Source of the DNA: Clostridiales bacterium
Lineage (GTDB): Bacteria > Bacillota > Clostridia > Oscillospirales > Oscillospiraceae
Reading direction: 5' to 3'
Length of the DNA stretch: 64,000 bases
Assembly (NCBI GenBank): GCA_022774865.1
Contig: JALFLH010000031.1
Span: 26,225-90,224, forward strand
Positions 10,749 to 46,292 of the stretch are shown here, piece by piece. The notes below the pieces were generated by a model that ran no database searches, was not told the origin of the DNA, and saw only the letters and a list, made by a program, of their open reading frames with translations. The translations under genes were made by a program, and so were the position numbers. Positions within the stretch are counted from its first letter, which is position 1. The number at the start of each line of letters is the position of its first letter.

Positions 10749-10777
10749 GCATAATCCGCCAATTCCTGCAAACAATA
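10749..10777 (+). promoter_or_regulatory. possible forespore (sigma-G/F-type) promoter of spoVT
   Basis: GCATA (10749-10753), 18 nt spacer, then ACAATA (10772-10777), about 35 nt upstream of the spoVT ATG. Only a partial match to GnATA-N17-18-CATnnTA. Confidence 0.25.
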
Positions 10778-10810
10778 CCATTGGAAACTGGGCACAAGGA
10801 GAGAAACGAA

Positions 10811-10996
10811 ATGAAAGCAACAGGAATCGTCCGCCGGGTCGACGACCTTGGCAGAATTGTGATCCCCAAAGAAATTCGCAGGACACTGCGCATCCGGGAA
10901 GGCGACCCGTTGTTAACATCATTGACACGGTGGGAAATTTTCAGCTTCGCAATGCTGGATCTGTCAAAAAGGAACCGCTGGGATGGTACATACTGA
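10811..10996 (+). pseudogene. spoVT: spoVT 5' fragment: 33 authentic SpoVT codons (10811-10909) plus a 28-codon tail encoded by the element
   Basis: MKATGIVRRVDDLGRIVIPKEIRRTLRIREGDP is near-identical to the AbrB-type N-terminus of SpoVT. After GDP the sequence (LLTSLTRWEIFSF...) loses all similarity. RBS AAGGAGAG at 10797-10804. Confidence 0.9.
10880..10927 (+). repeat. attL: 9-bp core GGCGACCCG (10901-10909) plus element-side inverted-repeat arm TTGTTAACATCATTGACA (10910-10927)
   Basis: The core is repeated exactly at 35648-35656. The arm is the reverse complement (16/18) of the arm at 35629-35647. Confidence 0.85.
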
Positions 10997-11124
10997 CGAA
11001 AAATGAAGTTTAACGGTATGTATTCGGGAAGGTAAAAATTGGGCATCTGCTATTCAAAGCAGATGCCCGGTTTTGTTGTTGGGGAACTTTTTGTTTAGAA
11101 TGTCGAAGAAATATTCCCTACAAA

Positions 11125-12033
11125 TCAAAATGTGCGCCAGCACTTGGTACGCATGAACTCCACGATCTCGCCGTTGTCCCGGTCCTCGTAATAGGCCACC
11201 AACAGCCGCTTGAACTCCGGTACATGGCTCTCGGGAATGACGATCAGGCCTTGCCCTTTGGAGATCATGTAGTGGTTAGCGAAAATCACCGATGCCCGCT
11301 TGTTGCCATCGTTGAAAATCTGAGTTTTCATGCAATACAAGCACAGCCGGATAGCGGTGTCCACCGGGTCAGTGCCGTCCGAAAGAATGGCATCGATGTT
11401 CTCTTTTACGCTGGTTTCGATGGGCAGGGGCGGAACATAGCTGGTGCCGCCGATGGCAACCGGCACACCCCGGATCCGGCCGCCGTCGGTATAGAAGCCC
11501 TCGTTGACCAGCTTGGCGATGTGGCAGAGGATGTAATAATCCGTAGGATAGCTCAGCACATCCTTGTCCAGAATGAACTCCCAGGCGTGTTTCAAATTCA
11601 GAATTTTCTGCACGTCGGTAGCGGTCATGCCGGATACAATACCGTTTTCGATGATGGTTTCCGTCTGGGGATAGGTGGTGGCCACACCCTCCAGAACAGC
11701 CTGATCATAGATGTTGGCTTTCATATTCGCCCGGGCGAAATCCAGATTCAGCATGACCCGGGGGGAGAGTTCCGTCTCCTCGTAACCCAGCGCAGCCAGT
11801 TCTCTTTCTACACGGCGGATGTGCTTGCGCAGCTCCCGGGATTCTCTGGCATTGCGGAGCAGAAGCTGGTACAGCTCGTCGGAATAGGCATCCACATAGG
11901 TAGAGGTCAGGCGGCTGCCCACCCGCTTGCGGACATAGAGATATTTCTGACCCTCCCGGTCCTTGATCTCCGGGGAGCCATCATAGGGAATCAGATTCAA
12001 CCGCGCCTGAAAGTCTGCCTTGACACAACCCAA
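11125..12033 (-). CDS. Fic-domain protein with a degenerate active-site motif, possibly 5'-truncated
   Basis: Fic core helix region with QIFNDGNKRAS (11290-11322) in place of HxFx(D/E)GNGR. The only in-frame start upstream of the conserved N-region is a TTG at 12033 with no RBS, and it overlaps the MFS ORF. Confidence 0.6.
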   Translation of the reverse strand: MGCVKADFQARLNLIPYDGSPEIKDREGQKYLYVRKRVGSRLTSTYVDAYSDELYQLLLRNARESRELRKHIRRVERELAALGYEETELSPRVMLNLDFARANMKANIYDQAVLEGVATTYPQTETIIENGIVSGMTATDVQKILNLKHAWEFILDKDVLSYPTDYYILCHIAKLVNEGFYTDGGRIRGVPVAIGGTSYVPPLPIETSVKENIDAILSDGTDPVDTAIRLCLYCMKTQIFNDGNKRASVIFANHYMISKGQGLIVIPESHVPEFKRLLVAYYEDRDNGEIVEFMRTKCWRTF

Positions 12034-13228
12034 GAGCGACCGTCTGGGTCATGCTGTTAATGGAGGCGCTAAAACCATCTGCGCGGATTCCGTCCTTTTC
12101 TTCCACATGATCCAGAACTTCAGCCAAATAGGAAGCCATCACATAGGTGGGAAGGCTTCCGGTGGATCGGATCAACAAACCGATAAGTACCGGAATCATC
12201 CGGTTTCCCGCGAAGAGTACAACACAGCTTCCAATAGCAGCAAGGGTGAATCCTACAATGGTTACTTTTTTCTTGCCGAATTTTCGAACCAGAGGCCAGA
12301 GCAGGGCAATGCCATAGCCCATGGGAGCCTGCCCGATCACATTGACCAGAATCTGCTTGGAAGCACCGGATTCCACAGAATTACCCAGAACCCAGTTGCA
12401 GTAGTAGATCATGGAACTGTGACTCATGGAATTGCACACATGCAGGATCATCGTAAAGGCTATGACCAGCAACCAGTACTTGTTGCGAAAGCATGCCCGA
12501 ATCTGGGCTGCGAAAGAGATCTGTTCCTGGCGGCCACTCAGTTCTTCGGTAACCCGTTCTTTGGTGAAATAGTATTCGATCAGAGTGGCAGGAATGGCAA
12601 CAACTGAGAGGCATCCCATCACGGTCAGCCAATTGCCCCGGGCGGCTTCACCCACGCCGATGAACCGAACCAGCAGGGGCATGACAACGGTGGTCAAAGC
12701 ACCGGGGAGCATGGAAATTGCCATAGAAGACAGCATAGCCAGACTGTCCCGTTGCTTGGTGTCCCGGGTGGACAGGGGGACCATCATGGCATGGCTAAGG
12801 GAATAGGTGGAGAATGCAAGAGAGAAAAACAGATTATAACTGATCACAACCCAGGCAATCTGGATACCATAGGATGCTCTGGGGACCGCATATAGCCCAA
12901 TGCCGCAGACGGTTAGTAAAACACCGGAGCAAAAAATCCATGGCCGGGCTTTGCCCTGGGCTGTTCTTGTTTTGTCGATCATACGGCCGATCCAAAGGCC
13001 TACCAGACTGCTGATGATTTTGGAGATCAAGGGCATCCATGTCAGAATGATACCAGTAATGCCCAAAACATCTGTATAGAACTGAGTCAGATAGGTTCCG
13101 GCAAGGCCATTGTAGACCATATACGCAAGGCACGGGCCAACAAAATATCCCAGAATACGCTCTGTCTTTGTGACATCTTCGGACTGGATCAGTGATTGCA
13201 GCGTTTTTCCTGAAAAGAAAGGTTTCAT
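11981..13228 (-). pseudogene. MFS / glycoside-pentoside-hexuronide-type symporter, apparently 3'-truncated
   Basis: Multi-TM GPH-like sequence (GRMIDKTRTAQGKARPWIF motif). At 415 aa it ends soon after ...INSMTQTVALGL, where a final TM helix would be expected. The tail overlaps the Fic ORF. Confidence 0.6.
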
Positions 13229-13370
13229 GGGTGATCCCCTTTCTGCAATGATGAATAGAACAAATTTGGCAACATGTGTTGAAAAACTGTTCTGCCCATA
13301 TTATAATTAGAGAAAAGGCGAAAAACAACCAACAAATCTTTTTTGAGTGTTGCCAAAAGGGGAGAAATAC

Positions 13371-13925
13371 ATGGATATCCGCAGCCAACGAACCAGACAG
13401 AATATATGTGATTGTTTCATCCATTTGCTGAATGAAAAAACTGTAGCGAAAATCACGGTAACAGAGATTTGTGAAATGGCACATATCAACCGTGCCACCT
13501 TTTACAAGCACTTTCTTGATGTGCCTGACCTGTTGGAAAACCTGACGCAGCAGGTGCTTGCCGAACTGCAGCAATTTCTGGAACAGCATCCGCAGAGACA
13601 ATTTGAGGAAATGATATTGGACATCCTGTGCTACATGAAGCAAAACGGTCAACGGTATCTGGCACTGGGTTCTGAAAAAGCCGATCCCAACCTGGCTGCC
13701 AAAACTTTCGCCATGTGTTATCAAAGTGTATTTCCTGTTTTGGAAAAGCAGCTGCCCCGGCAGAATCCAGAGCAAAAGAAGCTTCTGTATTACTATTTAT
13801 CTCAGGGCTGCGGCGGAGTACTCTCCCACTGGCTCAGCAGTGGTATGAAACAGGAACCGCAGGAAATTGCGAACTTTATTATGCGTGCCAGCATCCATAC
13901 CGTCCGTGGATTTCAGGAAGAATAA
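13371..13925 (+). CDS. TetR/AcrR-family transcriptional regulator
   Basis: N-terminal HTH (ITVTEICEMAHINRATFYKHF). Divergent from the MFS gene. Start at ATG 13371 with an AAAGGGGAG RBS. Confidence 0.85.
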   Translation: MDIRSQRTRQNICDCFIHLLNEKTVAKITVTEICEMAHINRATFYKHFLDVPDLLENLTQQVLAELQQFLEQHPQRQFEEMILDILCYMKQNGQRYLALGSEKADPNLAAKTFAMCYQSVFPVLEKQLPRQNPEQKKLLYYYLSQGCGGVLSHWLSSGMKQEPQEIANFIMRASIHTVRGFQEE

Positions 13926-14519: not shown

Positions 14520-15255
14520 AAAGGCAACCACCGACGCCGGTGGACATAAAGAGTTCCACTTATGGATAGAAAAAGAAAACCTCCGATGATAGAGTAGTGT
14601 CAGGTTCGCCAACCGACAACAGACAAAATCAAAGGAGGTTATCCAAATGGATAAAGATAGTTTAGCACAAAGTAAGTGGAACTGCAAATACCATATTGTG
14701 TTTGCGTCGAAATACCGACGCCAGATAGGCTATAAGCAAATCTCAGCAGACATAGGGCAGATCATCCGCGCCCTGTGCGCAAGAAACGGGATAGAAATTC
14801 TCGAGGCAGCAGCAATGCCGGATCACATACACCTGTATGTGAAGATACCGCCAAAGTATAGCGTGTCAGAGGTAATGGGATATCTGAAAGGAAAGAGCAG
14901 TCTGATGATCTTCGACCGGCATGCGAATCTGAGGTACAAGTACGGAAACCGGCATTTCTGGTGCCGCGGCTACTATGTGGACACGGTAGGGCGTAATGAG
15001 AAGGCAATACAGGAATATGTACGGAATCAGTTGCAAGAGGATGTAGCCGCGGACCAGATCCGTCTGAAAGAATTTACCGACCCGTTTACAGGTGAGCCAG
15101 TAAGCAAGGGCAAATAAAGAGCCGCCCCCCTAGAAGGGGGCAGCCCGTAATAGTGCTGCGATTGGCGAACTTTTTTCATGCGCCTTGAGGCGCGGTTGTC
15201 CTACGCCCTTATAGGGCTTGTGCAAGCCACCGGCTACGCTGGTGGTCTTGACCTA
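14520..15255 (+). mobile_element. IS200/IS605-family insertion sequence (tnpA only); boundaries approximate
   Basis: Y1 transposase flanked by short subterminal hairpins: CCACCG..CGGTGG at about 14528-14545, and CCCCC..GGGGG, GCGCC..GGCGC, CCACC..GGTGG at 15125-15245. Confidence 0.6.
14647..15117 (+). CDS. tnpA: IS200/IS605 family Y1 (HUH) transposase TnpA
   Basis: HUH motif PDHIHLYV, catalytic Tyr region FWCRGYYVDTVG, 156 aa, RBS AAAGGAGG. Confidence 0.92.
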   Translation: MDKDSLAQSKWNCKYHIVFASKYRRQIGYKQISADIGQIIRALCARNGIEILEAAAMPDHIHLYVKIPPKYSVSEVMGYLKGKSSLMIFDRHANLRYKYGNRHFWCRGYYVDTVGRNEKAIQEYVRNQLQEDVAADQIRLKEFTDPFTGEPVSKGK

Positions 15256-15265: not shown

Positions 15266-16090
15266 TCAGTCGTTGTGTTCCTTCCGGTATTCGGCAACAA
15301 CTTCCATGAAGTCTTTGACGCGCTGCGGGTCGATGTGATTTTCAAAAACGCCGTCCACCTTGAACGTTGTCCCAACAAGCGCACCGTCAGAAATGTCGAG
15401 CTTTTGCTTGATGTTGTCACGGCGGCAGCCGGTGGCAGCAAAAACTGGAACACCCCGGCCTTTGATCGCCTCACGCACATCTTCGATCAGCGTGCTGTTC
15501 GCCTCGATCCCGGCATGGGCGCCGGTCATGCAGAAGGCGTCCGGCTTGCAGTCAAAAATGATGGCCTTAGCCAGTTCCGGATATTTTACGGGTACAAGGT
15601 TGTCGTCCGATTCGTTGTTGAGAAAATAAAGAAGCCGGCAGTTGTCCAGACCGAGCGCCTTTTTGCGGCGGAGGATCTTGGAGGTATCGATATCCGAGAT
15701 GCCCTCCACGCCAACGTAAGCGCCGGTAAAAGTACCGCGGATAAAGCTCGCGTCAACCGCGGCGGCAAGATCAAGCGCTGCCATGGGGTCGCACTCCAGA
15801 TCGATGCCGTAAGGCACAGTGATTTCGCTCATCAATTCGCCAATGACGCGAGCCATGCCGCACGGCTGAACCGGGTCAACATCGCTCTGATACGGCAGAC
15901 TGAATTCGTTGGAAAAAAGAATGCCGTCAACGCCGCCATCCTGCAGCGCGTGCAGATCGCGGCGGGCATCTTCCACGGTTTTTTTCATGGAATCGCCCTT
16001 TTTGTATAATGGATCGCCGGGGAATGCATTGAGATGCAGCAGCGCAATAACGGGTTTTTCGTGACCAAACAGCTCTTTGCACCAGCTCAT
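15266..16090 (-). CDS. BtpA/SgcQ-family TIM-barrel protein
   Basis: KPVIALLHLNAFPGDPLY N-terminus and overall BtpA/SgcQ family pattern, 274 aa. Last gene of the minus-strand operon. Confidence 0.75.
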   Translation of the reverse strand: MSWCKELFGHEKPVIALLHLNAFPGDPLYKKGDSMKKTVEDARRDLHALQDGGVDGILFSNEFSLPYQSDVDPVQPCGMARVIGELMSEITVPYGIDLECDPMAALDLAAAVDASFIRGTFTGAYVGVEGISDIDTSKILRRKKALGLDNCRLLYFLNNESDDNLVPVKYPELAKAIIFDCKPDAFCMTGAHAGIEANSTLIEDVREAIKGRGVPVFAATGCRRDNIKQKLDISDGALVGTTFKVDGVFENHIDPQRVKDFMEVVAEYRKEHND

Positions 16091-16229
16091 TTTCTATTCC
16101 TCCCTGTATAAATGCAAATAAGATAAACAATTTACGATCTCATTGTACCACTCTACGTACTATATGTCATTCGCCGAAGAGCTTAGCTGTTTGACGTGCG
16201 CTCCTCTTGTTGACCGATGCTTCCTATGT

Positions 16230-17102
16230 TCAATGCTCCGCATCGACCCAGCGGCAGCGGCGCAGCCATTCCGCCGTTTTCCTTGTCGCGGCATCGGGAT
16301 CATCAAAATACATTTGGTTGTTGATCTCCATGGTGATCGTACCGGTATAATTGTGCCGTACCAGCGTTTCGAGATATCCCTCTACATCGTTGGTTCCTTC
16401 ACCGGGAACCATGTGCCCCTCCGGGCAGCCGTCCGCCAGATGAAGGTGGTTGATCGTTCCAAACGTTTCAAAATAGGATTCAACCGTTTCGTTGCCTGCG
16501 GCGGCGGCAACGCAGTCAATGCATGCCGTGAGATTGGGTGAGCCGACGGCGTCGATTAGCCGTTTAAGCGTCGTTTTATCGTAGCACAGATTGGATTCAT
16601 AACGCTGCAGCTGCTCCATCACCATTTTAACGCCCAGTTTTTCCGCATAGGCATTAATCTCACGCAGCGATTCAATCGACCGGTCATATGCCGCCGCCTC
16701 GTCCTCGTCAAACAGGCAATAGCCCATCTGTGGGAAGAAATAGATCGCACCGAGTGCCTTGGTGTCCTCCAGATACCCTTTTACGATTTCCAGGCTGTTT
16801 CGCCGTACATATGGGTTGGAAGACGCGACATTGATGGGGTACAGGCAAATCTGCTCTGCGGTGAAAACCGAGACCTTCAGGCCGTTGTCGTCCAGCATGC
16901 GGCGGATCTCGCCGATGCGCCGGTCACGCTGCCCGGGGGCAGTGTCAAAATAGCTGTAGTGCGGTGCGCCGCCCCAGAGATCAACGTAGCGGAAGCCCGC
17001 TTTTGCGATGGATGCGAGCGCATATTCGAGACTATAGAGCTGATAGTTGACGCTCATTACGCCAAACTGCGAAAATTTCAGTTTATCCATCGTTCCCCTC
17101 AT
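16230..17102 (-). CDS. sugar-phosphate isomerase/epimerase (xylose-isomerase-like TIM barrel), FrlC-like
   Basis: VDLWGGAPH and HLHLADG..GHMVPGEG match the layout of fructoselysine 3-epimerase FrlC. ATGA overlap with the upstream gene. Confidence 0.8.
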   Translation of the reverse strand: MRGTMDKLKFSQFGVMSVNYQLYSLEYALASIAKAGFRYVDLWGGAPHYSYFDTAPGQRDRRIGEIRRMLDDNGLKVSVFTAEQICLYPINVASSNPYVRRNSLEIVKGYLEDTKALGAIYFFPQMGYCLFDEDEAAAYDRSIESLREINAYAEKLGVKMVMEQLQRYESNLCYDKTTLKRLIDAVGSPNLTACIDCVAAAAGNETVESYFETFGTINHLHLADGCPEGHMVPGEGTNDVEGYLETLVRHNYTGTITMEINNQMYFDDPDAATRKTAEWLRRCRWVDAEH

Positions 17103-17935
17103 TTCCAGAGCTGCTGCAGGACCTGCAGCGTTTTTTCATAGCTCTCATCCGGTGCATCCGCGTATTCCTCCATGGTGACTTCCAGCGTTATGGGGCCGGT
17201 GAAATCGTATTTCTCCATGGCTGCAAGGTGCGCGGCGATGTCCTGTGTGCCGTCGCCGAGGATGAACTGTTCGTCTTCGTCGTCGCTGTCAGAAAGCTGC
17301 ACAGCCCGTATCCGGGAGCCAAAGCGGCGGAAATAATCCTCCAGCGTTTCGCCGCCGGCTACTACGGCGCAGGTGTTCACGCTCAGCGCCAGACGCTCAT
17401 CTCCAACTCGCTCAAGTATCTCCGCCACCGCATTGCTGTTGGGCGTCATACCGGAAATGCAGGAGGAAACGTTTTGCAGCAGGATCGTCACGCCTTTTTC
17501 TCCGGCGTAGCCGCAAAGCTCACGCAGACACTCGCAGGCGTAGCTCAGCATTTCCTCATGCGGCTTGTCCATGGCGTTTTTGCCCGGATAGACCACCACC
17601 ATGCCGCAGCCGAGATATGGGGCACAGTCGATATAAAATTTCAGCTGCTCCATGCTCTTTTCACGCAGGAACGAGTCCGCGGAAGCAATATTGATCGGGA
17701 GAAAGTTCTGCTCCGGTTCGATGACCGGCACCGTGATGCCAGCCTCGCGGATCTGCCGGGCAAAAGCTGCGGGGTCGAAGCGCTCCTGCTCATAGATCGT
17801 GAAGTGCGGATGGCAGCCGCTCAGCTCAACTCTCGTCAGGCCGAGCCTTCGCACGGCGCGGAGAAAGTAGGAAAGGGAATACCGTCGGTAGGTCATATTG
17901 CTGATACCGACGCGCTCTTGAATCGTGCCTTTCAT
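17099..17935 (-). CDS. second sugar-phosphate isomerase/epimerase (xylose-isomerase-like TIM barrel)
   Basis: AP_endonuc_2-type pattern (VELSGCHPH, VQLSDSDDEDEQFILGDG), 278 aa. Confidence 0.8.
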   Translation of the reverse strand: MKGTIQERVGISNMTYRRYSLSYFLRAVRRLGLTRVELSGCHPHFTIYEQERFDPAAFARQIREAGITVPVIEPEQNFLPINIASADSFLREKSMEQLKFYIDCAPYLGCGMVVVYPGKNAMDKPHEEMLSYACECLRELCGYAGEKGVTILLQNVSSCISGMTPNSNAVAEILERVGDERLALSVNTCAVVAGGETLEDYFRRFGSRIRAVQLSDSDDEDEQFILGDGTQDIAAHLAAMEKYDFTGPITLEVTMEEYADAPDESYEKTLQVLQQLWK

Positions 17936-17952
17936 TTTTTCTTCCTTTCTTT

Positions 17953-18381
17953 TTATTCGCCCAGGATTACAAGAGAAATCGTGCGTTCCTGAGGACCGTC
18001 AAACTCTGCAAGGTATATTTCCTGCGCGCGGCCACAGACAATTTCTCCGTCTAAGATGGGGAGAACGCAGTGATTGCCAGAGAGCATGGATTTCAGATGT
18101 CCTGTCGGGTTTCCTGCCATGGCTCCGTATTCTCGAAGGAACCGCGCATGATAGTATTCACCATCCTCGGGGAAAAGCAGACCGAGCTGGCGGAGAATAT
18201 CGTCTTCCAGACATTCAAGTTTTTCGTTAATCATTATGCCGGTGGTCGTATGCTGCGTAATGACATACGCAACACCGTTGTCGACCCCCGACAGTCTCAC
18301 CTCCCGGCGGACATCCGCGCTTATGGGCAGGAGCTGGTTATATGCTTTGGTCATGTATTCCAGTGCAACATGCTTTACCAT
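17953..18381 (-). CDS. YjbQ/UPF0047 family protein (secondary thiamine-phosphate synthase-like)
   Basis: HTTTGIMINE and GHLKSMLSG motifs typical of YjbQ, 142 aa. Confidence 0.8.
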   Translation of the reverse strand: MVKHVALEYMTKAYNQLLPISADVRREVRLSGVDNGVAYVITQHTTTGIMINEKLECLEDDILRQLGLLFPEDGEYYHARFLREYGAMAGNPTGHLKSMLSGNHCVLPILDGEIVCGRAQEIYLAEFDGPQERTISLVILGE

Positions 18382-19232
18382 TACAGTGCCTCCCCAATAA
18401 ACTCCAACGCATTCCCGCCGAAAATCAGCTCTCGTGTGCTCTCACGCATATCCATATTCCGCAGTGCCTTTATCATACGCCGCTGTTCCAGCCGCGGGTC
18501 ATCCGAGCCGAACATAATCTGATGTCGCAGGCTGCGGTCAATCCACCCGGGGCCGATATCCACTTCCAGACACTGATGATAAAACTGGCGCGGATCGTCG
18601 AAATACAGCATGGCTGTGTCCGTATACACATTCGGATATTTGAGCATAAGCATGCACACCTCACGCACCCACGGCCAACCAAAGTGTGCAAGGCACATGC
18701 GGAGCTTTGGATACCGGAATGCCACCTCTTCAAATTCCAACGGATGTGAATGCTTTGTGAGTGTTCCCGGCTCCATGGATACGCCGGCATGGAATATGAT
18801 GGGCTTATCGTACCGCAGGCAGATCTCATAGAGCGGCGTGAGCAGCTCATCCGATGGGGAAAAATGCTGCTTGGACGGATGAAGCTTCAACCCTTTCAGG
18901 CCAAGCTGCGCAAAGGCGTACTCCAACTCCTCTGCCGCTGCGGCGGAATGCGGATCCACGCTGGCAAAGCCGACGAATTTCCCGGGACGCAGCCGCACAA
19001 GGTCTGCAATCTGGCAGTTTGTGACAAGTGCGCCACCGCGGCTCTCCGGCAACGCAAGCGGAAGAAGAAACAGCTTATCTATTCCGGATTCCGCCATATC
19101 CGCATCCCATTGCCGAAGACCAAAGGCTTCGGTTTTATAAAGTCCCATCTCCTGCGCGTTACGCCGGTACTTTTCTTCTCCGAGATTCAGCTCCTCTATG
19201 AATGCCGGATGGACGTGGGCGTCAATCAGCAA
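18381..19232 (-). CDS. amidohydrolase-2 family metal-dependent hydrolase
   Basis: LIDAHVHP metal-binding motif near the N-terminus. Start placed at TTG 19232, 10 nt after GGAAAGGAGG. The ORF-track start at 19328 would overlap the upstream kinase by 107 nt. Confidence 0.75.
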   Translation of the reverse strand: MLIDAHVHPAFIEELNLGEEKYRRNAQEMGLYKTEAFGLRQWDADMAESGIDKLFLLPLALPESRGGALVTNCQIADLVRLRPGKFVGFASVDPHSAAAAEELEYAFAQLGLKGLKLHPSKQHFSPSDELLTPLYEICLRYDKPIIFHAGVSMEPGTLTKHSHPLEFEEVAFRYPKLRMCLAHFGWPWVREVCMLMLKYPNVYTDTAMLYFDDPRQFYHQCLEVDIGPGWIDRSLRHQIMFGSDDPRLEQRRMIKALRNMDMRESTRELIFGGNALEFIGEAL

Positions 19233-20031
19233 CTTGCATCGGCCTCCTTTCCCAGGGATCAAAGATGGACACGACCTGAGCGGAGACGGCAGCGCCCTGT
19301 TCCAAGCATTTTTCGACCGACCAGCCACGCAGAACTCCGTTCATGAATCCCGCGATAAACGAATCGCCGGCGCCGACCGTGTTTTCCACTGTGGTCGGGA
19401 ACACACCAAAGCTGTGAAACTGTTCGCCGTCCCATGCGAGGCTGCCTTTGTCACCGAATGTGGCGACCGCAGTTTTCGCACCGCGCCGCACCTTGTCTTT
19501 CAGATACTCCTCCGTTTCCGCCGTGTGCTCCACGAAGGAAAAAAAGGCGTAGTCCACATAGGGGATCGTCTGCTCCACCAGCGGATCGGTCAGCTCGTCG
19601 GCATAATCAAAGCTGATTTTTGTTCCGGATTCGTGAATCTGCGGAAGATGCTCTGTGGCATTGCCCCATATTGCCGTATGCACGAGATCGTGATCACAGA
19701 CGAAACGGATATCCTCCGCGTCGAACTCCACGTTTTCCATGACGCCCTCGACATAGTCGCCGTAGGTGCGCTCCCGGTCGATGAGATCCATATATGAAAC
19801 GGCTGTCAGGCCGGGCGCAACTTTGAGATGGCTGGTATCAATATCCTCCATTTTAAGCTCCCGGACGAGCTGCCGGCCGAAAACGTCATCGCCCGTGGTA
19901 CTAATCACCGAGGTGGGTATGCCGAGCCGCTGCATATGCACGGCGAAGTCGACGACGTTGCCTGTGCAGTAATACCGGCCCAGGCGCGGGTAAATATCCA
20001 CGCAGTTATCGCCTAATGCTGCAACCTTCAT
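19222..20031 (-). CDS. PfkB-family kinase, fructoselysine 6-kinase (FrlD)-like
   Basis: MKVAALGDNCVDIYP, YGDYVEGVM, AIWG and TVGAGDSFIAGF line up with E. coli FrlD motifs. Start at ATG 20031 with a GAGAGGAGAG RBS. Confidence 0.8.
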   Translation of the reverse strand: MKVAALGDNCVDIYPRLGRYYCTGNVVDFAVHMQRLGIPTSVISTTGDDVFGRQLVRELKMEDIDTSHLKVAPGLTAVSYMDLIDRERTYGDYVEGVMENVEFDAEDIRFVCDHDLVHTAIWGNATEHLPQIHESGTKISFDYADELTDPLVEQTIPYVDYAFFSFVEHTAETEEYLKDKVRRGAKTAVATFGDKGSLAWDGEQFHSFGVFPTTVENTVGAGDSFIAGFMNGVLRGWSVEKCLEQGAAVSAQVVSIFDPWERRPMQVAD

Positions 20032-20044
20032 CTTTTCTCTCCTC

Positions 20045-20911
20045 TCAAACTCCATTGGCTTCTATAGCCGCTCCAAATCCGAACGCGCCCTCGGTCAGAC
20101 AGTTGTCCGCGGCAAAATCGGCGGCATAATCAAAGCATTCCTGCAGCGCGTCTTCACCGAGGCGCACACCGTGCTGCCAGCCTTTCCGGAGCATGGAAAC
20201 CATAAAGGCCGTAAAAAAGCTGTCTCCCGCGCCCATCGTGTCCACCGGCGTTATGGTCTTGACGCAGCCGTCGTAAAATCTGCTTCCATCATAGAGAAGC
20301 TGTCCGTGCATGCCCATGGTGGCCAGGACATAGGAAACGCCCTTTGCCGATACGCGGCTCAGCAGCTTCTCGATCTCGCCGCGGGTCATGTCCTCACAGG
20401 AAAAGAGCGCAAAATCCAACACCGGGCAGAGCGCGTTCAGATATTTCTCCGTGCGGAACTCGTCCTCCTCAGAAAAATCGAACGCCACCAGCGGCCCCAA
20501 TCCGAGCAGCTTTTGCAGCTCGTCCTCGGTCTCCGCATAGCAGCTGGAGTGGATAAGATCAAAGCCCGCCAGATACTTCAGCTCCTCCTCACCCAACGGC
20601 AGTGAGCCGTGGAGGTTTTCCCGCTCATCCTCGCCGCAGAAAACGCGCTCGCCATCGATGAGCTCCACATCGCAGTGCTCCGTCACGCTGCCAGGCTCCG
20701 CACGACAGTAGTCCGTGGAAACACCCAGCTTGTCCAGTGCGCCGCGAATCAGATCTGCTTCGGCGTCCTCGCCGAACGCGCCGAGATAAGCGCTTTCCGC
20801 GCCTGCGCGTTTGGCATATACTGCGAAATTGATGCAGTTTCCGCCGGGGAACATCCGGTTCTTGTTGACGTATCTGTCAACCACATTATCTCCGTAGCCA
20901 ACGACTCTCAT
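20045..20911 (-). CDS. second PfkB-family carbohydrate kinase
   Basis: MRVVGYGDNVVDRY..GGNCINFAV and DTMGAGDSFFTAF. Start at the internal ATG 20911; the long N-terminal extension in the track is Arg/Lys-rich junk. Confidence 0.8.
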   Translation of the reverse strand: MRVVGYGDNVVDRYVNKNRMFPGGNCINFAVYAKRAGAESAYLGAFGEDAEADLIRGALDKLGVSTDYCRAEPGSVTEHCDVELIDGERVFCGEDERENLHGSLPLGEEELKYLAGFDLIHSSCYAETEDELQKLLGLGPLVAFDFSEEDEFRTEKYLNALCPVLDFALFSCEDMTRGEIEKLLSRVSAKGVSYVLATMGMHGQLLYDGSRFYDGCVKTITPVDTMGAGDSFFTAFMVSMLRKGWQHGVRLGEDALQECFDYAADFAADNCLTEGAFGFGAAIEANGV

Positions 20912-20982
20912 AGTTTTCCTATTCCTTTCATTTTTGCGGCGCGGGACACCGATGCGCGCACCGGCGTTCCGTGGCCATTCGG

Positions 20983-22515
20983 TCAGAAACGGTTTTCCTC
21001 GTATACGGTTTTTCCGCCCACGACGGTTTTGATAACTTTTACGCTGCGGTATTCCTCCGGATTGCAGGAGAAAAGATCGCGGTCGAGCACGATCAGATCG
21101 GCCCACTTTCCCTCCGTCAGCGTCCCCGCCTGTTCGAGCGAGCGCTGCGCGGCATACCCATTGCGGCTCCAGCAGTACAGCACCTCGCCGGGCGTCAAAG
21201 CGTTCTGCTTCTGATAGCCTCCCTCTGGTTTTCTGTCCGGGAAGCGCCGGTTGCAGGCAAACTCCAGCGACGTTCCGAGATCGGGTACGTCCAGCGGGAG
21301 ATCGGTGCCGAAGCTGAGCAGCACGCCGTCACGGATCATGTCTTTATACGGCCAGATCGTCTTCTGCCGCTTCTCGTCGAAGCGCGTCAGCCCATAGTAG
21401 CCGTCGTACTCCGGGTAGCAGTTCATGATCTGCACATAGCACACGGCCGCCGTTTTCTGTGCCGCCATGCGGCGGCGGTCCGCCGGATCGATCAGCTCAA
21501 CATCTGTGATCACGTGGTTTCCCTTGCAGGTGTCATAAATATCCAGCACGTGGCGCACAGCGGCGTCGCCTTCGGCATGCATATAGCAGCGCAGACCGCG
21601 CTTATCTGCCGCACGGACTACCGCCTCGAGCGCGGAATAATCCACCTCCGCGTTCTCTTGTCCTTCCGGCCAGGGAGGCAGAAGATCGGCCTCATAGCTT
21701 TCGGCATCGCCGTCCACCATGATGTTGAAGCCCATGAAGCGAAGCATATCGCCGGTGAACCGGCGGCGGCATGCCTCGGCAAAGTCCATATCCGCCGGCG
21801 CTTTTACCGGCTGGGAAACGAGAAAGGAGCGGTGCTTCAGCTCGCCCTGCTGCTCCATTACAGCCAATTCCTCCAGAAATCCGCTGTAATCGTCAAAGCC
21901 GATCTCCTTGATGGCGGTCACGCCCTTGGATGCGAGCAGGTTCTGAAACTCCTCATACCAGCGGCGCACCTCGGCCTTATCCTGCAAAAACTCTTCCAAA
22001 AGATGGCAGCATACCTCGGCATAGCATTCCGTGCCGTCAAACCCATAACGCCCGCGCGCCGCATCGTTCATCCAGCAGCGGCTGCGCTCGTCGTTGAACA
22101 CGCAGACCGGCCGATCGGGAAACGCCGCAGTGAGCGCGCCGGGCGCTAAGTCTTCCTCGCTCCAGTCTTCAAAGTCCGCGCCGTGGCCGCATACAGTGCC
22201 TTCCGTATGCTCCGCCGCCGCCCGGACGAGCGAGAGCATTTGCTGCGCATTTTCTGCCCCGGAAGCGTCAAAGCCCTTATGCTGCCAGATATAGCCCGTG
22301 AAAAACACATGGTTGTCCACCAAACCACAGCTCACCGTCCGGCTGCCGACATCCGTGACGAGCGTGTTTTCCCCCAGCAGCTCGCCGTACTCGTCACCGT
22401 CGCCCACCCCGACGATCTTATCCCCGCGCACGGCGACGAAGCCGTCGCGGACATCCTGCGGCGTAATGCCAGTGAAAATGGACCGGGAACGAAGGATCCA
22501 ATCGGCTCTTTCCAT
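20983..22515 (-). CDS. amidohydrolase-3 (YtcJ-like) family protein
   Basis: 510 aa. N-terminal beta-sandwich (GFVAVRGDKIVGVG), GLVDNHVFF metal-site region, C-terminal GTDLPLD and ADLIVLDRD motifs. Confidence 0.7.
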   Translation of the reverse strand: MERADWILRSRSIFTGITPQDVRDGFVAVRGDKIVGVGDGDEYGELLGENTLVTDVGSRTVSCGLVDNHVFFTGYIWQHKGFDASGAENAQQMLSLVRAAAEHTEGTVCGHGADFEDWSEEDLAPGALTAAFPDRPVCVFNDERSRCWMNDAARGRYGFDGTECYAEVCCHLLEEFLQDKAEVRRWYEEFQNLLASKGVTAIKEIGFDDYSGFLEELAVMEQQGELKHRSFLVSQPVKAPADMDFAEACRRRFTGDMLRFMGFNIMVDGDAESYEADLLPPWPEGQENAEVDYSALEAVVRAADKRGLRCYMHAEGDAAVRHVLDIYDTCKGNHVITDVELIDPADRRRMAAQKTAAVCYVQIMNCYPEYDGYYGLTRFDEKRQKTIWPYKDMIRDGVLLSFGTDLPLDVPDLGTSLEFACNRRFPDRKPEGGYQKQNALTPGEVLYCWSRNGYAAQRSLEQAGTLTEGKWADLIVLDRDLFSCNPEEYRSVKVIKTVVGGKTVYEENRF

Positions 22516-22537
22516 TGGGTATGCCCTCCTGTAAAAA

Positions 22538-23551
22538 TCAGTATTCCATCACACGGTAGTAGCGGCGGATGTCGAGCGAATGGCCGCGCTTATCCTCCAG
22601 CTGAATGCTGAGCCGGTCGAGAATGGCCGTCATAACGATGGGCGAGAGCAGATGGCGGTATTTCTCATCAATGCCGGGCAGCTCATAATCTTTCGTATCG
22701 AACACCGTGAGATGCTCCGTGATGCGCTGGGCAAAGCTCTGCACGCGCTCACACATGGCGCGACTCGCGTCCTCGCCCATGATCAGCATGACGCTCGTGT
22801 CCTTATCCACGATCTCCAGCGTGCCGTGGAAGAATTCGGCGGCGCGCACCGTTTTGGTGCGGATCCACTGCATTTCCTCCATGACGCACATGCCGTAGGA
22901 ATACGTCTCGCCCCACAGACTGCCGGAGCCGATGAGCAGATGATATGTCTCATCCTTGTACTGCTCGGCGAAGGCCTCGCAGAAGGCGTCGCTGTGCTCT
23001 TTTACCGAAACGAGCGCTTCGGGCATTCTGGCAAGATTCGCGCAGAAGTCCTCGTAATCGTCGAAATCGCCCGCGGCATGCATCAGCGCAAATGTCAGCA
23101 TATAAAGGAGCAGATAGTCTGCGTCCGACGCGGAAAAGTCGTCCATCTTATTGATGATGGCATAATCGGCGTTTTTGGCGTAGGGCACCTGGTCGTTGCC
23201 GGAAATGCAGATCGTCACAGCGCCCTTGCTGCGGCAGTACTCCGCCGCCGCCACCGTCTCCTTTGTAGTGCCGGAGGTAGAGGTGAAAATGCAGACCGAT
23301 TCCGCGCCGAGCTGGTTGTGTCCCGTCGCCATCAACTCCGCGGCGATCACGCAGTAGGTCTGAATGCGTGACTGTGTGGTGAGATAATACTCAAATGGGA
23401 TAAACATGGCGTAAGAGCCGCCGGAGCCGATGAGAAATACGTTCTTAAAGCCCTTCTTGCTCACCTCGTCCACGATCTCATCCACACGGGACTTAAGCGC
23501 GACGGTGTTTTTGCCGATTCGCAGGTAACTTTCTTCGTTGAAATTTTTCAT
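22538..23551 (-). CDS. SIS-domain fructoselysine-6-phosphate deglycase (FrlB)-like
   Basis: Two SIS domains (FLIGSGGSY, TSTSGTTKE). C-terminus RRYYRVMEY resembles FrlB's RRYYGGLVEY. Start at ATG 23551 with AAGGAGGG. Confidence 0.8.
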   Translation of the reverse strand: MKNFNEESYLRIGKNTVALKSRVDEIVDEVSKKGFKNVFLIGSGGSYAMFIPFEYYLTTQSRIQTYCVIAAELMATGHNQLGAESVCIFTSTSGTTKETVAAAEYCRSKGAVTICISGNDQVPYAKNADYAIINKMDDFSASDADYLLLYMLTFALMHAAGDFDDYEDFCANLARMPEALVSVKEHSDAFCEAFAEQYKDETYHLLIGSGSLWGETYSYGMCVMEEMQWIRTKTVRAAEFFHGTLEIVDKDTSVMLIMGEDASRAMCERVQSFAQRITEHLTVFDTKDYELPGIDEKYRHLLSPIVMTAILDRLSIQLEDKRGHSLDIRRYYRVMEY

Positions 23552-23596
23552 GGGAAACCCTCCTTGAAGTATACAAAGTATCCAATTGCGGTTTTT

Positions 23597-23625
23597 AATA
23601 TACCACCAACTTTTCAGCGTGTCAA
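23597..23625 (-). promoter_or_regulatory. sigma-A-type promoter of the frl-like operon
   Basis: On the minus strand: TTGACA (23625-23620), 17 nt, TATATT (23602-23597). The spacer/-10 contains TGGTATAT, half of the GGTATACC operator motif. Confidence 0.6.
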
Positions 23626-23722
23626 GCCTGCAAGTACACAAAAATTCTCCGGAAGAAATGTGCATATTATACAGAGGCGGTGTGTTTGTTCGCCGCGAGC
23701 AGCAGCGAAAGAATAGTTTTTA

Positions 23723-23750
23723 TTGCAAAGGAAAAAAAATTGTGTATAAT
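23723..23750 (+). promoter_or_regulatory. sigma-A-type promoter of the GntR-GntR-HAD operon
   Basis: TTGCAA (23723-23728), 16 nt, TATAAT (23745-23750). Overlaps the imperfect palindrome ATTGTGTATAATAGTACATAAT. Confidence 0.5.
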
Positions 23751-23816
23751 AGTACATAATAAAAAATTGGCACAGGTCAGTCTTTCTCGCCGGATGAGTC
23801 GGCAACGCAGGAAACC

Positions 23817-24581
23817 GTGCAGATGGAGGCACATGTGGGAAAACACATTCTCGTGCGAAGCGAAGAGCTTCGGGAGCGGATTGAAGAATACATCGATAAA
23901 AGTGGCCTCAAGCCGGGCGACAAGCTGCCCTCTGAGCGCGCCTTTGCGGAAGCGCTTGGCACAAGCCGCGTTACGCTACGCGACGCGCTGATGCGCATGC
24001 AGGACGAGGGTCTGATTGAGACGCGGCACGGCAAGGGCAGCTTCATTGCGCCGCCCAAATTCGAGGAGGATGCGCGCAGCTTTCTCTCCTGCACCTCCGG
24101 CTGGGAGGCCGACGGCTTCAAAGTATCGAGTGAGGTGCTGAGCTTTCTGGAAAAGGAAGCGGGCGCCAAGGCCGCCCGGATGCTGAACATCCCCATCGGT
24201 GAGTCAGTGTTCGAGCTCAAGCGGGTGCGCCGTCTTGACGGTGTTCCGGTGTTCATTGAAACATCGAACATCCCCTCCTGCCGCGTACCGGGGCTGAAGA
24301 AATACGATTTTTCCAGTTGCTCTCTGTACACGGTCCTGGAAAAGGATTACGGCATCGTCCTCACCCAGCAGATGCAGACGTTCTCCATCACGCATCTTTC
24401 CGAGAAGGAAGCACGCTGGCTGGGCGTGGATCAGGACACGCCGGCGTTTTATATCTGCGGCACGACCTTTGATGCCGCCGGAACGCCCACGGAGTTCACC
24501 GTCAGCATCAACCGTGCCGACCGCTACAACGTTTCCGCATGGCTTACCCGCCAGACACCTGCCATGGACAGTGAGGGATAA
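23817..24581 (+). CDS. GntR/HutC-family regulator (wHTH + UTRA)
   Basis: LPSERAFAEALGTSRVTLRDALMRMQDEGLIETRHGKGSF, then a UTRA-like C-terminal domain. Confidence 0.85.
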   Translation: MQMEAHVGKHILVRSEELRERIEEYIDKSGLKPGDKLPSERAFAEALGTSRVTLRDALMRMQDEGLIETRHGKGSFIAPPKFEEDARSFLSCTSGWEADGFKVSSEVLSFLEKEAGAKAARMLNIPIGESVFELKRVRRLDGVPVFIETSNIPSCRVPGLKKYDFSSCSLYTVLEKDYGIVLTQQMQTFSITHLSEKEARWLGVDQDTPAFYICGTTFDAAGTPTEFTVSINRADRYNVSAWLTRQTPAMDSEG

Positions 24582-24584
24582 CGC

Positions 24585-25292
24585 ATGATATCTCAGCCAA
24601 TTTACGTACAGATCGCCGATACGATCCGCCGTAAGGTAGAGCTCGGCGTATACGCCTACGGTTCCCGTCTACCAACGGAGCGGGAGTTTTCCGAAAACTT
24701 CGGTGTAAACCGCATCACCGTCCGCAAGGCGCTGAAGCTGCTCGTGGATGAAGGGTTGCTCATCAGCAGTCAGGGTCGCGGTACCTTTGTTTCCCAGCCA
24801 AAGATCAGCTCGGGCATGGATACGATTCAGGGCACATCCAGCTTCCTCACCGACATGGGCTTTACGCCGAGCTCCAAAATGCTGCACACGCTGCGCCGCA
24901 AGGCAGGATATTACTTTGCGAAAAAGCTGGGCATTCCGGAAGAGGACGACGTTTACCAGATCATCCGTCTGCGGCAGGGCGACGGCGATCCGCTTTCTCT
25001 GGAATACACCACCATCCCGTTCTCGCTGATCCCCAACATCGAAAACTACGACTTTTCGGTCTTCTCCCTCTCCGAGCTGTACGAACGCAACGGAATCACG
25101 CTCTGCAAGGTAAAGCAGGTGCTGTCCATCGTCAAGCTGCATGAGCCGCAGGTCACATTTCTGCGATGCAAGGAGGGAGACTACGGCTTCATCTCCGAAG
25201 AGGTCGTCTTCGGAGACGCCGGCCGGCCGATCGAGTTTTCCAAATCCTACTACAGCGGACGCAAATTCAATTTCACATCGGTTATGGAGTGA
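24585..25292 (+). CDS. second GntR/HutC-family regulator (wHTH + UTRA)
   Basis: LPTEREFSENFGVNRITVRKALKLLVDEGLLISSQGRGTFV plus a UTRA-like C-terminus. Starts 3 nt after the first regulator. Confidence 0.88.
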   Translation: MISQPIYVQIADTIRRKVELGVYAYGSRLPTEREFSENFGVNRITVRKALKLLVDEGLLISSQGRGTFVSQPKISSGMDTIQGTSSFLTDMGFTPSSKMLHTLRRKAGYYFAKKLGIPEEDDVYQIIRLRQGDGDPLSLEYTTIPFSLIPNIENYDFSVFSLSELYERNGITLCKVKQVLSIVKLHEPQVTFLRCKEGDYGFISEEVVFGDAGRPIEFSKSYYSGRKFNFTSVME

Positions 25293-25960
25293 TGGTTTTG
25301 AGCAAAACGGCGCCGCGCGGCGTTCTGTTTGATATGGACGGCGTGATTATCGACAGCGAAAGCTACAACTATGTGCTGGACCGGGACGCCTTTTCTCTGC
25401 AGGGATTCACTCTGGATTGGGATACGTTCCGCCATGTCATCGGAACGAACGAGGCCTTCATCCGGAGCTTTTACGAATCTCGTTACGGCAAGGCGTTTGA
25501 CTTTGACCGGCTTCGTCGTGACACCGACCGACTGTTCTTCGACTATATAGAGAAAAACGGCGTCTCACCCAAGCCCGGCGCCCTCGCCGCGCTTCGCTGG
25601 CTGAAGGATCAGGGCTACAAGCTCTGTCTCGCCACCTCCAACGACTACGGAGACGCCCGATTTCTCATGGAGCGGATCGGCGTGTGGGAGCTGTTTGACG
25701 TTGTCGTCACCGGCGACCGGGTCGGTCCAAGCAAACCCGCCCCGGACATTTATCTCGCCGCTGCCGCGGCGCTCGGTCTCGCTCCGGAGGAATGTCTTGC
25801 CGTGGAGGACAGCTATGCCGGGGTGAAAAGCGCGGCAGCTGCGCGTTGCCAGACCGTGATGGTACCCGATCTCCTGCCGCCGACGGACGAGATGCATGCG
25901 CTTGCCGACGCGATCATACCCAGTTTGGAAGCTCTTCCGGCTTATGTCTCTGCGCTGTAA
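25292..25960 (+). CDS. HAD-IA family phosphatase (beta-phosphoglucomutase-like)
   Basis: DMDGVIIDSE (motif I), LATSN (II), EDSYAGVKSAAAA (IV). Its ATG overlaps the upstream TGA by 1 nt. Confidence 0.85.
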   Translation: MVLSKTAPRGVLFDMDGVIIDSESYNYVLDRDAFSLQGFTLDWDTFRHVIGTNEAFIRSFYESRYGKAFDFDRLRRDTDRLFFDYIEKNGVSPKPGALAALRWLKDQGYKLCLATSNDYGDARFLMERIGVWELFDVVVTGDRVGPSKPAPDIYLAAAAALGLAPEECLAVEDSYAGVKSAAAARCQTVMVPDLLPPTDEMHALADAIIPSLEALPAYVSAL

Positions 25961-25982
25961 TTTTCCCAATAACCGTCCTTCC

Positions 25983-26018
25983 GGGCGTGCTGCCAACGAT
26001 CGCAGCACGCCCTTTTTT
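25983..26018 (+). terminator. rho-independent terminator
   Basis: GGGCGTGCTGC / GCAGCACGCCC stem followed by TTTTTT. Confidence 0.8.
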
Positions 26019-26204
26019 GCTCCGTAAATTTCTCAAATGCAGGTGGTATGAAAGATTCCGCTTCGTGGTATGGAAAAGTCCTATTGTTTCCCTACCCACT
26101 CACATTCGGAAATAGGCCCTGATTTTCACCGCATTTCTCGCAATTTATTCTATTTTCTCCGGTGAAACAACCAAATGTTTTTTCTCCTGTCCACCGTTCC
26201 CGCA

Positions 26205-26220
26205 AAACTGGTATACCTCG
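26205..26220. promoter_or_regulatory. candidate HutC/GntR operator copy 1 (AAAACTGGTATACCTCG)
   Basis: Contains the palindrome GGTATACC (26210-26217). 15/17 identical to copy 2. Confidence 0.45.
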
Positions 26221-26283
26221 CGCGCTCCATTTATTGTACATTTTAGACAAAATTCGTTGGGTTTTTTATGTGTTATCGCAATA

Positions 26284-26312
26284 TTGACACGGCATTTTTT
26301 AAGAGGTATGAT
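26284..26312 (+). promoter_or_regulatory. sigma-A promoter of the transporter/FGGY-kinase operon
   Basis: TTGACA (26284-26289), 17 nt, TATGAT (26307-26312). About 140-nt leader before the GTG start. Confidence 0.65.
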
Positions 26313-26319
26313 GATGGTG

Positions 26320-26336
26320 AAATTGGTATACCTTGA
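26320..26336. promoter_or_regulatory. candidate HutC/GntR operator copy 2 (GAAATTGGTATACCTTG)
   Basis: Palindrome GGTATACC (26325-26332) lies 12 nt downstream of the -10 hexamer, a position suited to repression. Confidence 0.45.
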
Positions 26337-26459
26337 CGAGATGTGACAGTATTTCCTTTCCACCGCCGGAGCCTTCGTCCAAACGGACTTCCGGCCCTCT
26401 CGCAGGGGAACCACAAAATGGAGACTGAGGGAGTCTCAGAAAAATAAGGAGGATTACAC

Positions 26460-28004: not shown

Positions 28005-28107
28005 CCCACTATCAAAACCAACATGGCGGCGGTAAGTCTCTACTTGCCGCCGCCGTATTCTACACCGCCGGGCCGATCCCGGCGAGCCGATTGCGCAAGG
28101 AGGGCAT

Positions 28108-29759: not shown

Positions 29760-30146
29760 TTACCGGCAGACGAGCTCGTCGTTTTCGACGTCCACCGTGA
29801 GCGTGCTGCCCGCGGCGAGATCGCCGGAGAGAATGGCTCTTGCCAGCAGCGTTTCCACGCTGCTCTGGAGATACCAGCGCAGCGGACGCGCGCCGTAGAG
29901 CGGATCGTAGCCACGCTCGATGATAAGCTCCTTCGCCTTGTCGGTGATGCAGAGCTTGAGTGAGCGGTCGGCCAGGCGCTTCTTGAGCCCTTCGACCATG
30001 ATGTCGATGATGCCGGTGAAGTTGTCTTTCGTGAGCGGCTTGAAGAGGATCATCTCATCGAGACGGTTCAGAAACTCCGGGCGGAACGCGCGGTGCAGCT
30101 CGCCCATGACGGCGCTCTTCGCCGAATCGGTGATATTACCCTCCAT
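29760..30146 (-). pseudogene. clpB: 3' fragment of a clpB/clpA-type AAA+ chaperone gene (D2-small domain only)
   Basis: FRPEFLNRLDEMILFKPL and YDPLYGARPLRWYLQSSVE are the ClpB C-terminal signatures. The roughly 700 N-terminal residues are absent. The frame is open only to 30224, with no ClpB similarity upstream of about 30150. Confidence 0.8.
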
Positions 30147-31410: not shown

Positions 31411-31468
31411 TATATTATATCAGGTAAGCAAAACATAAAATCAAATTCGCCACAAAGGAGGAATGGCA

Positions 31469-46277: not shown

Positions 46278-46292
46278 TGTATTGTCTCCTTA

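Follow-up and report, generated by a model that had tools for sequence, protein, structure and literature searches.

The intervening elements known from sporulation genes, namely skin, SPbeta, vfbin, vrin and gin, obey one rule: the interrupted gene belongs to the mother cell, the element is excised in a cell that will die, and inheritance is secured through the untouched spore genome. Closest to the system considered here is gin, a non-phage element of 28.6 kb in gerE of Bacillus cereus ATCC 10987 that is moved by a serine recombinase together with a small factor (GirC/GirX; PMC5595907); SPbeta in spsM and skin in sigK come next. In SPbeta, which carries sprA and the sporulation-controlled sprB, and in skinCd, which carries a recombination directionality factor (RDF), it is a small factor that sets excision (PMC4191935, PMC6957869, PMC5025042). 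Cyanobacterial heterocysts offer a parallel in the nifD, fdxN and hupL elements, where programmed excision rebuilds the gene during differentiation (PMC6957869). Here, we analyse a stretch of 64,000 nt from a Clostridiales bacterium of the Oscillospiraceae (assembly GCA_022774865.1, contig JALFLH010000031.1, positions 26,225 to 90,224), referred to as the window, in whose numbering coordinates are given unless another contig is named. Within it the forespore regulator gene spoVT is split by an island of 24,747 bp, measured core to core, that carries its own large serine recombinase (LSR); full-text literature searches returned no published report of an interrupted spoVT. In related elements, forespore-type promoters within the recombination module suggest that the gene may here be interrupted and restored within the germ line of the bacterium.

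With SpoVT of B. subtilis as the tblastn query, residues 1-34 are matched at 10811-10912 (94% identical) and residues 28-177 at 35639-36094 (E 2e-29), on the strand of the 5' part. The features at the two junctions are as follows.

10811-10996, plus strand: 5' fragment of spoVT, an open reading frame (ORF) of 61 residues; codons 1-34 run to 10912 and are followed by 27 element-encoded codons and a stop
10901-10909, plus strand: attL core GGCGACCCG, codons G31-D32-P33, with its central GA at 10904-10905; the same 9 bp are found at attR
10912-10927, plus strand: left-end inverted repeat GTTAACATCATTGACA (P' arm of attP), the reverse complement of the right-end repeat with 1 mismatch
35629-35644, plus strand: right-end inverted repeat TGTCAATGTTGTTAAC (P arm), which pairs with the left-end repeat
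35648-35656, plus strand: attR core GGCGACCCG, the same 9 bp as at attL
35657-36100, plus strand: 3' part of spoVT, codons 35-180 and stop, equal to the C-terminal 146 residues of a 718-residue LSR-SpoVT_C ORF (coding end 36097)

The 5' ORF departs from spoVT after Leu34 and reaches its stop at 10996 in foreign sequence, while the C-terminal part matches the Pfam domain SpoVT_C over positions 1-128 of 128 (E 6e-39). When the two parts are rejoined, the resulting protein of 180 residues aligns with the solved SpoVT structure 2W1T over residues 1-179 (E 6e-45) and has the make-up that defines SpoVT, an AbrB-type N-terminal domain and a GAF-like SpoVT_C domain in about 180 residues. Since the solved N-terminal DNA-binding domain (2RO5) spans residues 1-55, the break lies inside the AbrB-type DNA-binding domain; an earlier note on the window had placed it at residue 33, within that fold, which is right to within one codon, the core occupying codons 31-33. 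The sequence reads ...CGGGAA-GGCGACCCG-TTGTTAACATCATTGACA across attL and TGTCAATGTTGTTAAC-GAG-GGCGACCCG-CTGGAA across attR. The ends of the element are 16-nt inverted repeats placed symmetrically about the central GA at a distance of 6 nt, and in the inferred attP 14 nt centred on that GA separate them.

Naturally empty sites are available for comparison. Intact SpoVT alleles of 180 residues that are 99-100% identical to the reconstructed protein were recovered by protein search, and uninterrupted spoVT is present on three short gut-metagenome contigs (L008-L010) that are 96-100% identical to both window flanks, matching the window up to 10909 and resuming from 35645. Two of them (L009 and L010) carry the predicted attB exactly, and in the third (L008) two flank bases differ, leaving the core unaffected. 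Because these natural empty sites match the predicted attB, the split is a real and clean site-specific insertion, and neither a chance resemblance nor a misassembly; the interruption proposed in the earlier note is thus upheld by tblastn, Pfam, the 9-bp core and the empty sites together. The insertion is polymorphic within one species, in which the site also exists empty, and integration is conservative site-specific recombination at the 9-bp core inside codons 31-33. The island has what characterises an intervening element: it occupies a precise site in the coding sequence of a sporulation gene, it is bounded by a short common core, and its excision would restore the reading frame.

The genes and promoters that matter for recombination and for the timing of spoVT expression are listed below.

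10749-10777, plus strand: sigmaF/G-type (forespore) spoVT promoter, GCATA-N17-AACAATA, assigned by motif conservation
33541-33570, plus strand: degenerate forespore-type promoter of the accessory gene, GAATA and GAAAATA
33592-33855, plus strand: accessory gene of 87 residues, candidate RDF or regulator, with homologues beside the LSR
33880-33908, plus strand: sigmaA-like LSR promoter, TTGCAT-N17-TACAAT, a conserved block that scores 8 of 12
33944-35647, plus strand: LSR (Pfam Resolvase 5e-16, Recombinase 2e-23, Zn_ribbon_recom 3e-12)

In keeping with its class, the LSR combines a resolvase catalytic domain bearing the nucleophilic serine with a recombinase domain and a zinc ribbon, and its residues R8, S10 and Q26 are invariant in a family alignment of 16 relatives. 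Its best solved relative is SprA/YokA (E 4e-21). The gene adjoins attR, so the island has its own recombinase at one end, and its ORF (33944-36100) crosses attR in frame into the SpoVT C-terminal domain to give the protein of 718 residues. As the LSR gene contains attP within its 3' end (33944-36100; 10910-10996), integration exchanges the last 27 residues of the recombinase for the 146-residue SpoVT_C, always in frame. In the excised form the LSR would end with the 27 codons that are now joined to the 5' fragment of spoVT and would have 599 residues; this 27-residue tail is conserved in relatives, one of which (P0019) ends ...FSFAMLDLAKRQGWN.

The fusion is the usual state of this recombinase. 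Among the 120 best clusters of LSR relatives (68-98% identical), 109 are fusions to SpoVT_C (PF15714) with lengths of 711-729 residues, and SpoVT_C is intact (146-147 residues) in all 107 that are full length; likewise, 66 of the 68 JGI and ENA metagenome loci with enough downstream sequence encode an LSR-SpoVT_C fusion. Of the 80 species representatives listed as closest in SpoVT, from Faecousia and other Oscillospiraceae, 9 are split, the match beginning only at residue 22-31; where these have sufficient sequence upstream, the LSR found there is 49-57% identical to that of the window. There are 136 fusion pairs in which the LSR parts are at least 95% identical and the SpoVT_C parts at most 80%, down to 41%; therefore the module moves between distant hosts and always enters the same codons. 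In three clusters (P0069, P0082 and P0084) the LSR ORF runs into the antisense of the 5' part of spoVT (...RIRMVLRISLGMTTRPKSSMRRTIPVAFI...), from which it follows that the same site is also used in the opposite orientation. Cargo varies among family members, with TRAP transporter and transketolase genes in one and a Schlafen/AlbA protein in another. A cultured carrier exists as well: in the closed genome of Intestinimonas butyriciproducens CP159998.1 the LSR fusion stands in the usual spoVT context. The island is therefore one member of an extensive family that spreads horizontally and has an LSR dedicated to the spoVT site, and the finding widens from one locus to that family.

Other LSR elements have entered the same region in I. 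butyriciproducens. On metagenome contigs L118-L120 (571-6495), spoVT is split at about codon 11 by a different element, which has three full LSR genes (554, 564 and 530 residues) and a 128-residue resolvase fragment; the intact locus is matched from spoVT nt 31 onwards, and the remainder is annotated by gene callers as a 164-residue 'SpoVT' (P0363 and P0364; 81 index blocks). On L111 (5117-6893) and L113 (5117-7042), spoVT is intact and the adjoining spoVAC is cut after about residue 106, leaving residues 107-147 followed by two LSR genes. Since spoVT is also cut at codon 11 and spoVAC is cut too, forespore-line genes are recurrent targets of LSRs in this lineage.

These observations also suit plain insertional inactivation, according to which conserved spoVT is a broad-host-range landing site that is dispensable in growth, excision is sporadic and without developmental link, and carriers are sporulation-impaired, a state that is tolerated or favoured in the gut or whose cost is offset by cargo. 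We regard this as the main rival of the reading proposed below and as a serious possibility, though one that falls clearly short of being probable. The targeted stretch, IREGDPLEI, is the best conserved portion of spoVT, as a landing site would be, and the elements that cut spoVT at codon 11 and spoVAC fit the notion of sporulation genes as safe harbours. The intact allele (P0361) is far commoner than the split one in I. butyriciproducens (1721 index blocks versus a handful). As the element is polymorphic and hops between hosts, intact spoVT halves need not reflect selection, and horizontal transfer makes them uninformative in this respect. Nevertheless, a decayed SpoVT_C was seen in none of the 107 fused alleles, and very abundant fused clusters (P0033 has 1738 members) are unexpected if carriers are without spore transmission. 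Inactivation is also difficult to reconcile with the consequence of losing SpoVT in C. difficile, where the spoVT mutant forms no heat-resistant spores (PMC3789822).

The compartment in which spoVT is expressed is central to any interpretation. The earlier note held that known sporulation intervening elements sit in mother-cell genes and that spoVT is a forespore gene. The first statement agrees with the field's own summary, which words it as 'almost all' (PMC6957869). As for the second, spoVT depends on sigmaF/sigmaG in Bacillus and in C. difficile (PMC3738446, PMC3789822), and forespore expression in the present lineage is well supported by promoter patterns. Of 67 orthologous loci, 46 have the pattern G[ACT]AT[AG]-N17/18-NANA[ACT]TA in front of spoVT, in most cases at 58-92 nt from the ATG (shuffles: mean 1.1, maximum 4), and the pattern has 2 matches in total on both strands of the window. 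The promoter at 10749-10777, which the earlier note took for a weak match, is thus a conserved one. In Intestinimonas the pattern is also found about 55 nt upstream of spoVAC (GCATG-N18-GAAAACTA; L118 at about 7564 and L103 at about 13235, both on the minus strand), and since spoVAC is one of the forespore spoVA genes, this is independent support for the pattern as a mark of forespore genes in this clade. It is very improbable, in our judgement, that spoVT is instead expressed in the mother cell in this lineage and that the classical logic holds after all. What leaves room for it is that the compartment in Oscillospiraceae is assigned from promoter sequence; the motif before spoVT and spoVAC, and the sigmaF/sigmaG dependence just mentioned, speak against it. 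With its conserved sigmaF/G-type promoter, spoVT does not have the arrangement in which the target is expressed in the mother cell and the spore genome keeps the element, and because the target is a forespore gene, survival of the element through the death of the mother cell does not apply to the island.

The same pattern recurs at the recombination module. Homologues of the accessory gene (33-49% identical) adjoin the LSR in nearly all family loci, and in 21 of 48 unique sequences, corresponding to 12 of 26 independent groups, the forespore pattern precedes the beginning of the accessory gene by 49-67 nt (shuffles: mean 0.36, maximum 4); among the other ORFs in the same loci, taken as the control, it precedes 1 of 362. 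Insertional inactivation leaves this enrichment unexplained. No sigmaE or sigmaK pattern was matched upstream of the accessory gene in the loci scanned, a further argument against mother-cell expression of spoVT. On a Faecousia metagenome-assembled genome (L015, about 2627), a homologue of the accessory gene directly adjoins intact spoVT. Upstream of the LSR, a cTTGc-N17-TACAATGTT block is kept in about 10 of 15 diverged relatives; this is the sigmaA-like block listed above, which at 8 of 12 was not called by a generic consensus scan.

Taken together, these data lead us to propose, tentatively and with slightly less than even confidence, that the island is excised in the forespore and reintegrates later. 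Reversible excision was one of the possibilities raised in the earlier note, and it gains indirect support from the forespore-type promoters in the recombination module of related elements. In this scheme the island would act as an intervening element in the forespore line, with an LSR made from a housekeeping-type promoter. The small gene 5' of the LSR occupies the directionality-factor position of known attL-rdf-int-attR units (PMC6957869) and has a sigmaF/G-type promoter in much of the family; in the forespore, its product would turn the LSR towards excision by attL x attR recombination. Excision would rebuild spoVT as the spoVT promoter turns active, and the excised circle would escape loss by segregation in the non-dividing spore. 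Once the spore has germinated, production of the accessory protein would have ceased; the LSR, in which the native 27-residue tail has by then replaced SpoVT_C, would integrate the circle by attP x attB recombination and so split the gene again. The insertion, its site specificity, the mobility of the family, the promoter patterns and the layout of the module are shown by the data; we infer where the genes are expressed, that the small protein acts as an RDF, that the circle is retained and that it reintegrates after germination, the last of these purely by reasoning.

A broader form of the proposal would extend it to the gut Oscillospiraceae as a whole, with a class of germ-line LSR islands that split spoVT (at codons 31-33 or codon 11) and spoVAC, are excised under sigmaF/G control, persist as a non-replicating circle in the dormant spore and are reintegrated by the LSR alone at germination, in every sporulation cycle; the exchange of the C-terminus between SpoVT_C and the 27-residue tail might then help to set directionality. 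We consider this generalisation unlikely as it stands.

Several observations weigh against forespore-triggered excision followed by reintegration, in addition to the speculative nature of the reintegration step. All promoter assignments are pattern matches and not mapped transcription start sites. Neither a consensus scan nor an upstream alignment of relatives found a sporulation-sigma promoter before the LSR, only the sigmaA-like block; such a housekeeping-like promoter speaks for insertional inactivation and is at the same time part of the layout that recalls SPbeta and skinCd. The clade to which the window belongs (LSR at least 96% identical) has the boxes before the accessory gene either 15 nt apart or with an 18-nt spacer and G, not A, as the last base; because this promoter is degenerate, the evidence is weaker for the window's own element, and inactivation gains accordingly. 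The accessory protein has no Pfam match, no PDB profile match better than E 0.08 and, by these same comparisons, no detectable similarity to known directionality factors; its single-sequence AlphaFold model is unusable (predicted local distance difference test score, pLDDT, 54). One locus (L103) is without an accessory gene within 10 kb, and two others (L001 and L105) carry it inverted. The rebuilding of spoVT may moreover not be required, as some spore formers are without spoVT (bioRxiv 10.1101/2022.02.25.481979).

No excision product was observed in the assemblies searched. The exact attP of the window's element has no match in JGI metagenome contigs, in which the element is rare, and the result is uninformative for that reason. 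Joined-end junctions resembling attP, in which the LSR end abuts the homologous left end of another island, are seen in P0019 (L001-L007) and P0003 (L122, 4640-4800). These are more likely to be tandem arrays at spoVT, since they lie in contigs of 20-87 kb with differing neighbours and the core on L122 is mutated (GGGTGTCCG). They are probably such arrays and are not counted as evidence for circles.

A further explanation is that the split copy is not needed, either because a second spoVT or a functional paralogue exists elsewhere, as the earlier note had suggested, or because sporulation in this lineage is independent of SpoVT or has been lost. In favour of this, the window shows 64 kb of the genome, in which no other sporulation gene was found; E. 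ramosum is a spore former without spoVT (bioRxiv 10.1101/2022.02.25.481979); and the host genus, a Faecousia-like member of the Oscillospiraceae, is uncultured. However, no second spoVT emerged from the complete genomes of I. butyriciproducens or from the matches listed for nine split species representatives, the latter being weak evidence. In the complete I. butyriciproducens genomes intact spoVT (P0361) has a single context, DUF815 - spoVT - spoVAC, which is the very locus split in CP159998.1, and every one of the closest intact SpoVT proteins (99-100% identical) derives from the empty orthologous site, with no second context. A further argument for the maintenance of sporulation is that spoVT, like its forespore promoter, is conserved within the genus and the family. 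We therefore judge this explanation improbable and retain forespore-triggered excision with reintegration as our tentative preference.

The remaining contents of the island, assigned by Pfam unless stated otherwise, are as follows.

11041-11078, unstranded: G+C-rich hairpin with a T-run behind it, close to the left end within the island, read from the sequence
11125-12033, minus strand: Fic-domain protein
11981-13228, minus strand: MFS_2 transporter
13347-13925, plus strand: TetR regulator
14647-15117, plus strand: IS200-like Y1 transposase (Y1_Tnp, E 1.5e-39)
15266-29625, unstranded: carbohydrate/amino-sugar catabolism cluster of about 14 kb
29760-30146, minus strand: ClpB C-terminal fragment, an isolated ClpB D2-small domain in a 128-residue ORF
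30287-31186, minus strand: GNAT acetyltransferase
31463-31819, plus strand: tnpV homologue (TnpV, E 1.2e-31)
31845-33338 (approximate boundaries), minus strand: DDE insertion sequence (DUF772/DDE_Tnp_1_6; transposase ORF 31799-33265)

The hairpin at 11041-11078 is predicted to halt read-through from the spoVT promoter. In the catabolism cluster, Pfam identifies BtpA, two xylose-isomerase-like TIM barrels, UPF0047, amidohydrolases, two PfkB kinases and SIS, together with two GntR/UTRA regulators, HAD, a transporter and an FGGY kinase. The ClpB fragment is probably a gene remnant. The DDE insertion sequence sits in the hairpin 3' of tnpV and must have arrived recently, since an otherwise identical island (L011) is without it.

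A prophage or prophage remnant was considered and rejected. Pfam searches of all island ORFs found no phage structural, packaging or lysis genes, and related contigs and a phage collection agree: eight related IMG/VR contigs, found with the family alignment, have PHROGs matches to integrase, primase and ParB only and are without structural genes, a search of IMG/VR with the single LSR sequence gave no match, and no close LSR relative is present among 50,697 INPHARED phage records. The earlier note had thought of a phage-regulatory-switch type of behaviour; the element itself is not phage-like. Two short, unannotated human faecal virome entries named 'Bacteriophage sp.' (MT839487.1 and MT836658.1) encode LSRs 50-56% identical to the family; packaged circles could account for them, as could carry-over of island DNA into preparations of virus-like particles. 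In the host flank, at 44976-59330, five FAD_oxidored (PF12831) paralogues, two of them with DUF7402 or F5/8-type-C tails, enclose an ABC sugar-uptake system and a sensor kinase; this cluster looks like an unusual glycan/sugar oxidation locus.

A widespread mobile family dedicated to a forespore regulator breaks the mother-cell rule. Should the germ-line chromosome undergo programmed exit and re-entry of the island, this would be a new kind of developmental DNA rearrangement, and the naturally switched directionality of its LSR would be of interest for genome engineering. Should the insertions be knock-outs, mobile elements would be a major reversible cause of the sporulation loss seen in gut Firmicutes and, through it, of their altered modes of transmission. 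The matter is open to direct experiment, given a cultured carrier with a closed genome (I. butyriciproducens CP159998.1) alongside many element-free strains.

Among the known systems, gin shares most with the spoVT island. Both are non-phage elements of similar size (28.6 and 24.7 kb) that interrupt the coding sequence of a small transcription factor of sporulation, and both have a 9-bp core, flanking inverted repeats and a serine recombinase, which in gin acts together with a small accessory factor (GirC/GirX). They differ in that gerE is a mother-cell (sigmaK) gene and gin is kept in the spore genome, whereas spoVT carries a forespore promoter; in that the LSR of the spoVT island reads in frame into the target gene; and in that the two recombinases are not close relatives. 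Moreover, gin excision has been shown experimentally, whereas excision of the spoVT island is proposed here. The order attL ... small gene - LSR - attR is also that of SPbeta and skin, with SprA/SprB and SpoIVCA/Skr, respectively (PMC4191935, PMC5499854, PMC6957869, PMC5025042). In these, the recombinase can be generally expressed and the sporulation-sigma promoter of the small factor times excision, a layout that is mirrored in the spoVT island family. SPbeta and skin are, however, prophages or prophage remnants in mother-cell genes with sigmaE/sigmaK promoters before the factor, whereas the spoVT island is non-phage, occupies a forespore gene and belongs to a family with a sigmaF/G-type motif.

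Some resemblance extends beyond sporulation. Tn4451/Tn4453 (TnpX and TnpV) and Tn5397 (TndX) are LSR-mobilised transposons in which TnpX and TndX cross over at a GA dinucleotide. The spoVT island is like Tn4451 and Tn5397 in being non-phage, in having an LSR at one end, a tnpV homologue and inverted repeats centred on GA, and in that a circular intermediate is expected; it differs from them in that Pfam found no mobilisation gene among the island ORFs and in that its family is strictly spoVT-specific. Orthology with TnpX was considered and is not supported, since among 72,556 plasmid records none has a relative of the LSR that exceeds about 30% identity. In phages with integration-dependent immunity, of the mycobacteriophage BPs type, attP lies in the repressor gene and the integrase is a tyrosine recombinase. 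There too attP is inside a coding sequence and integration swaps the C-terminus of a protein, but in the spoVT island it is the 3' end of the LSR itself that is predicted to be exchanged, with the addition of the 146-residue SpoVT_C. Finally, heterocyst elements leave in a terminally differentiated cell, whereas excision from spoVT, as proposed here, would take place in the germ line.

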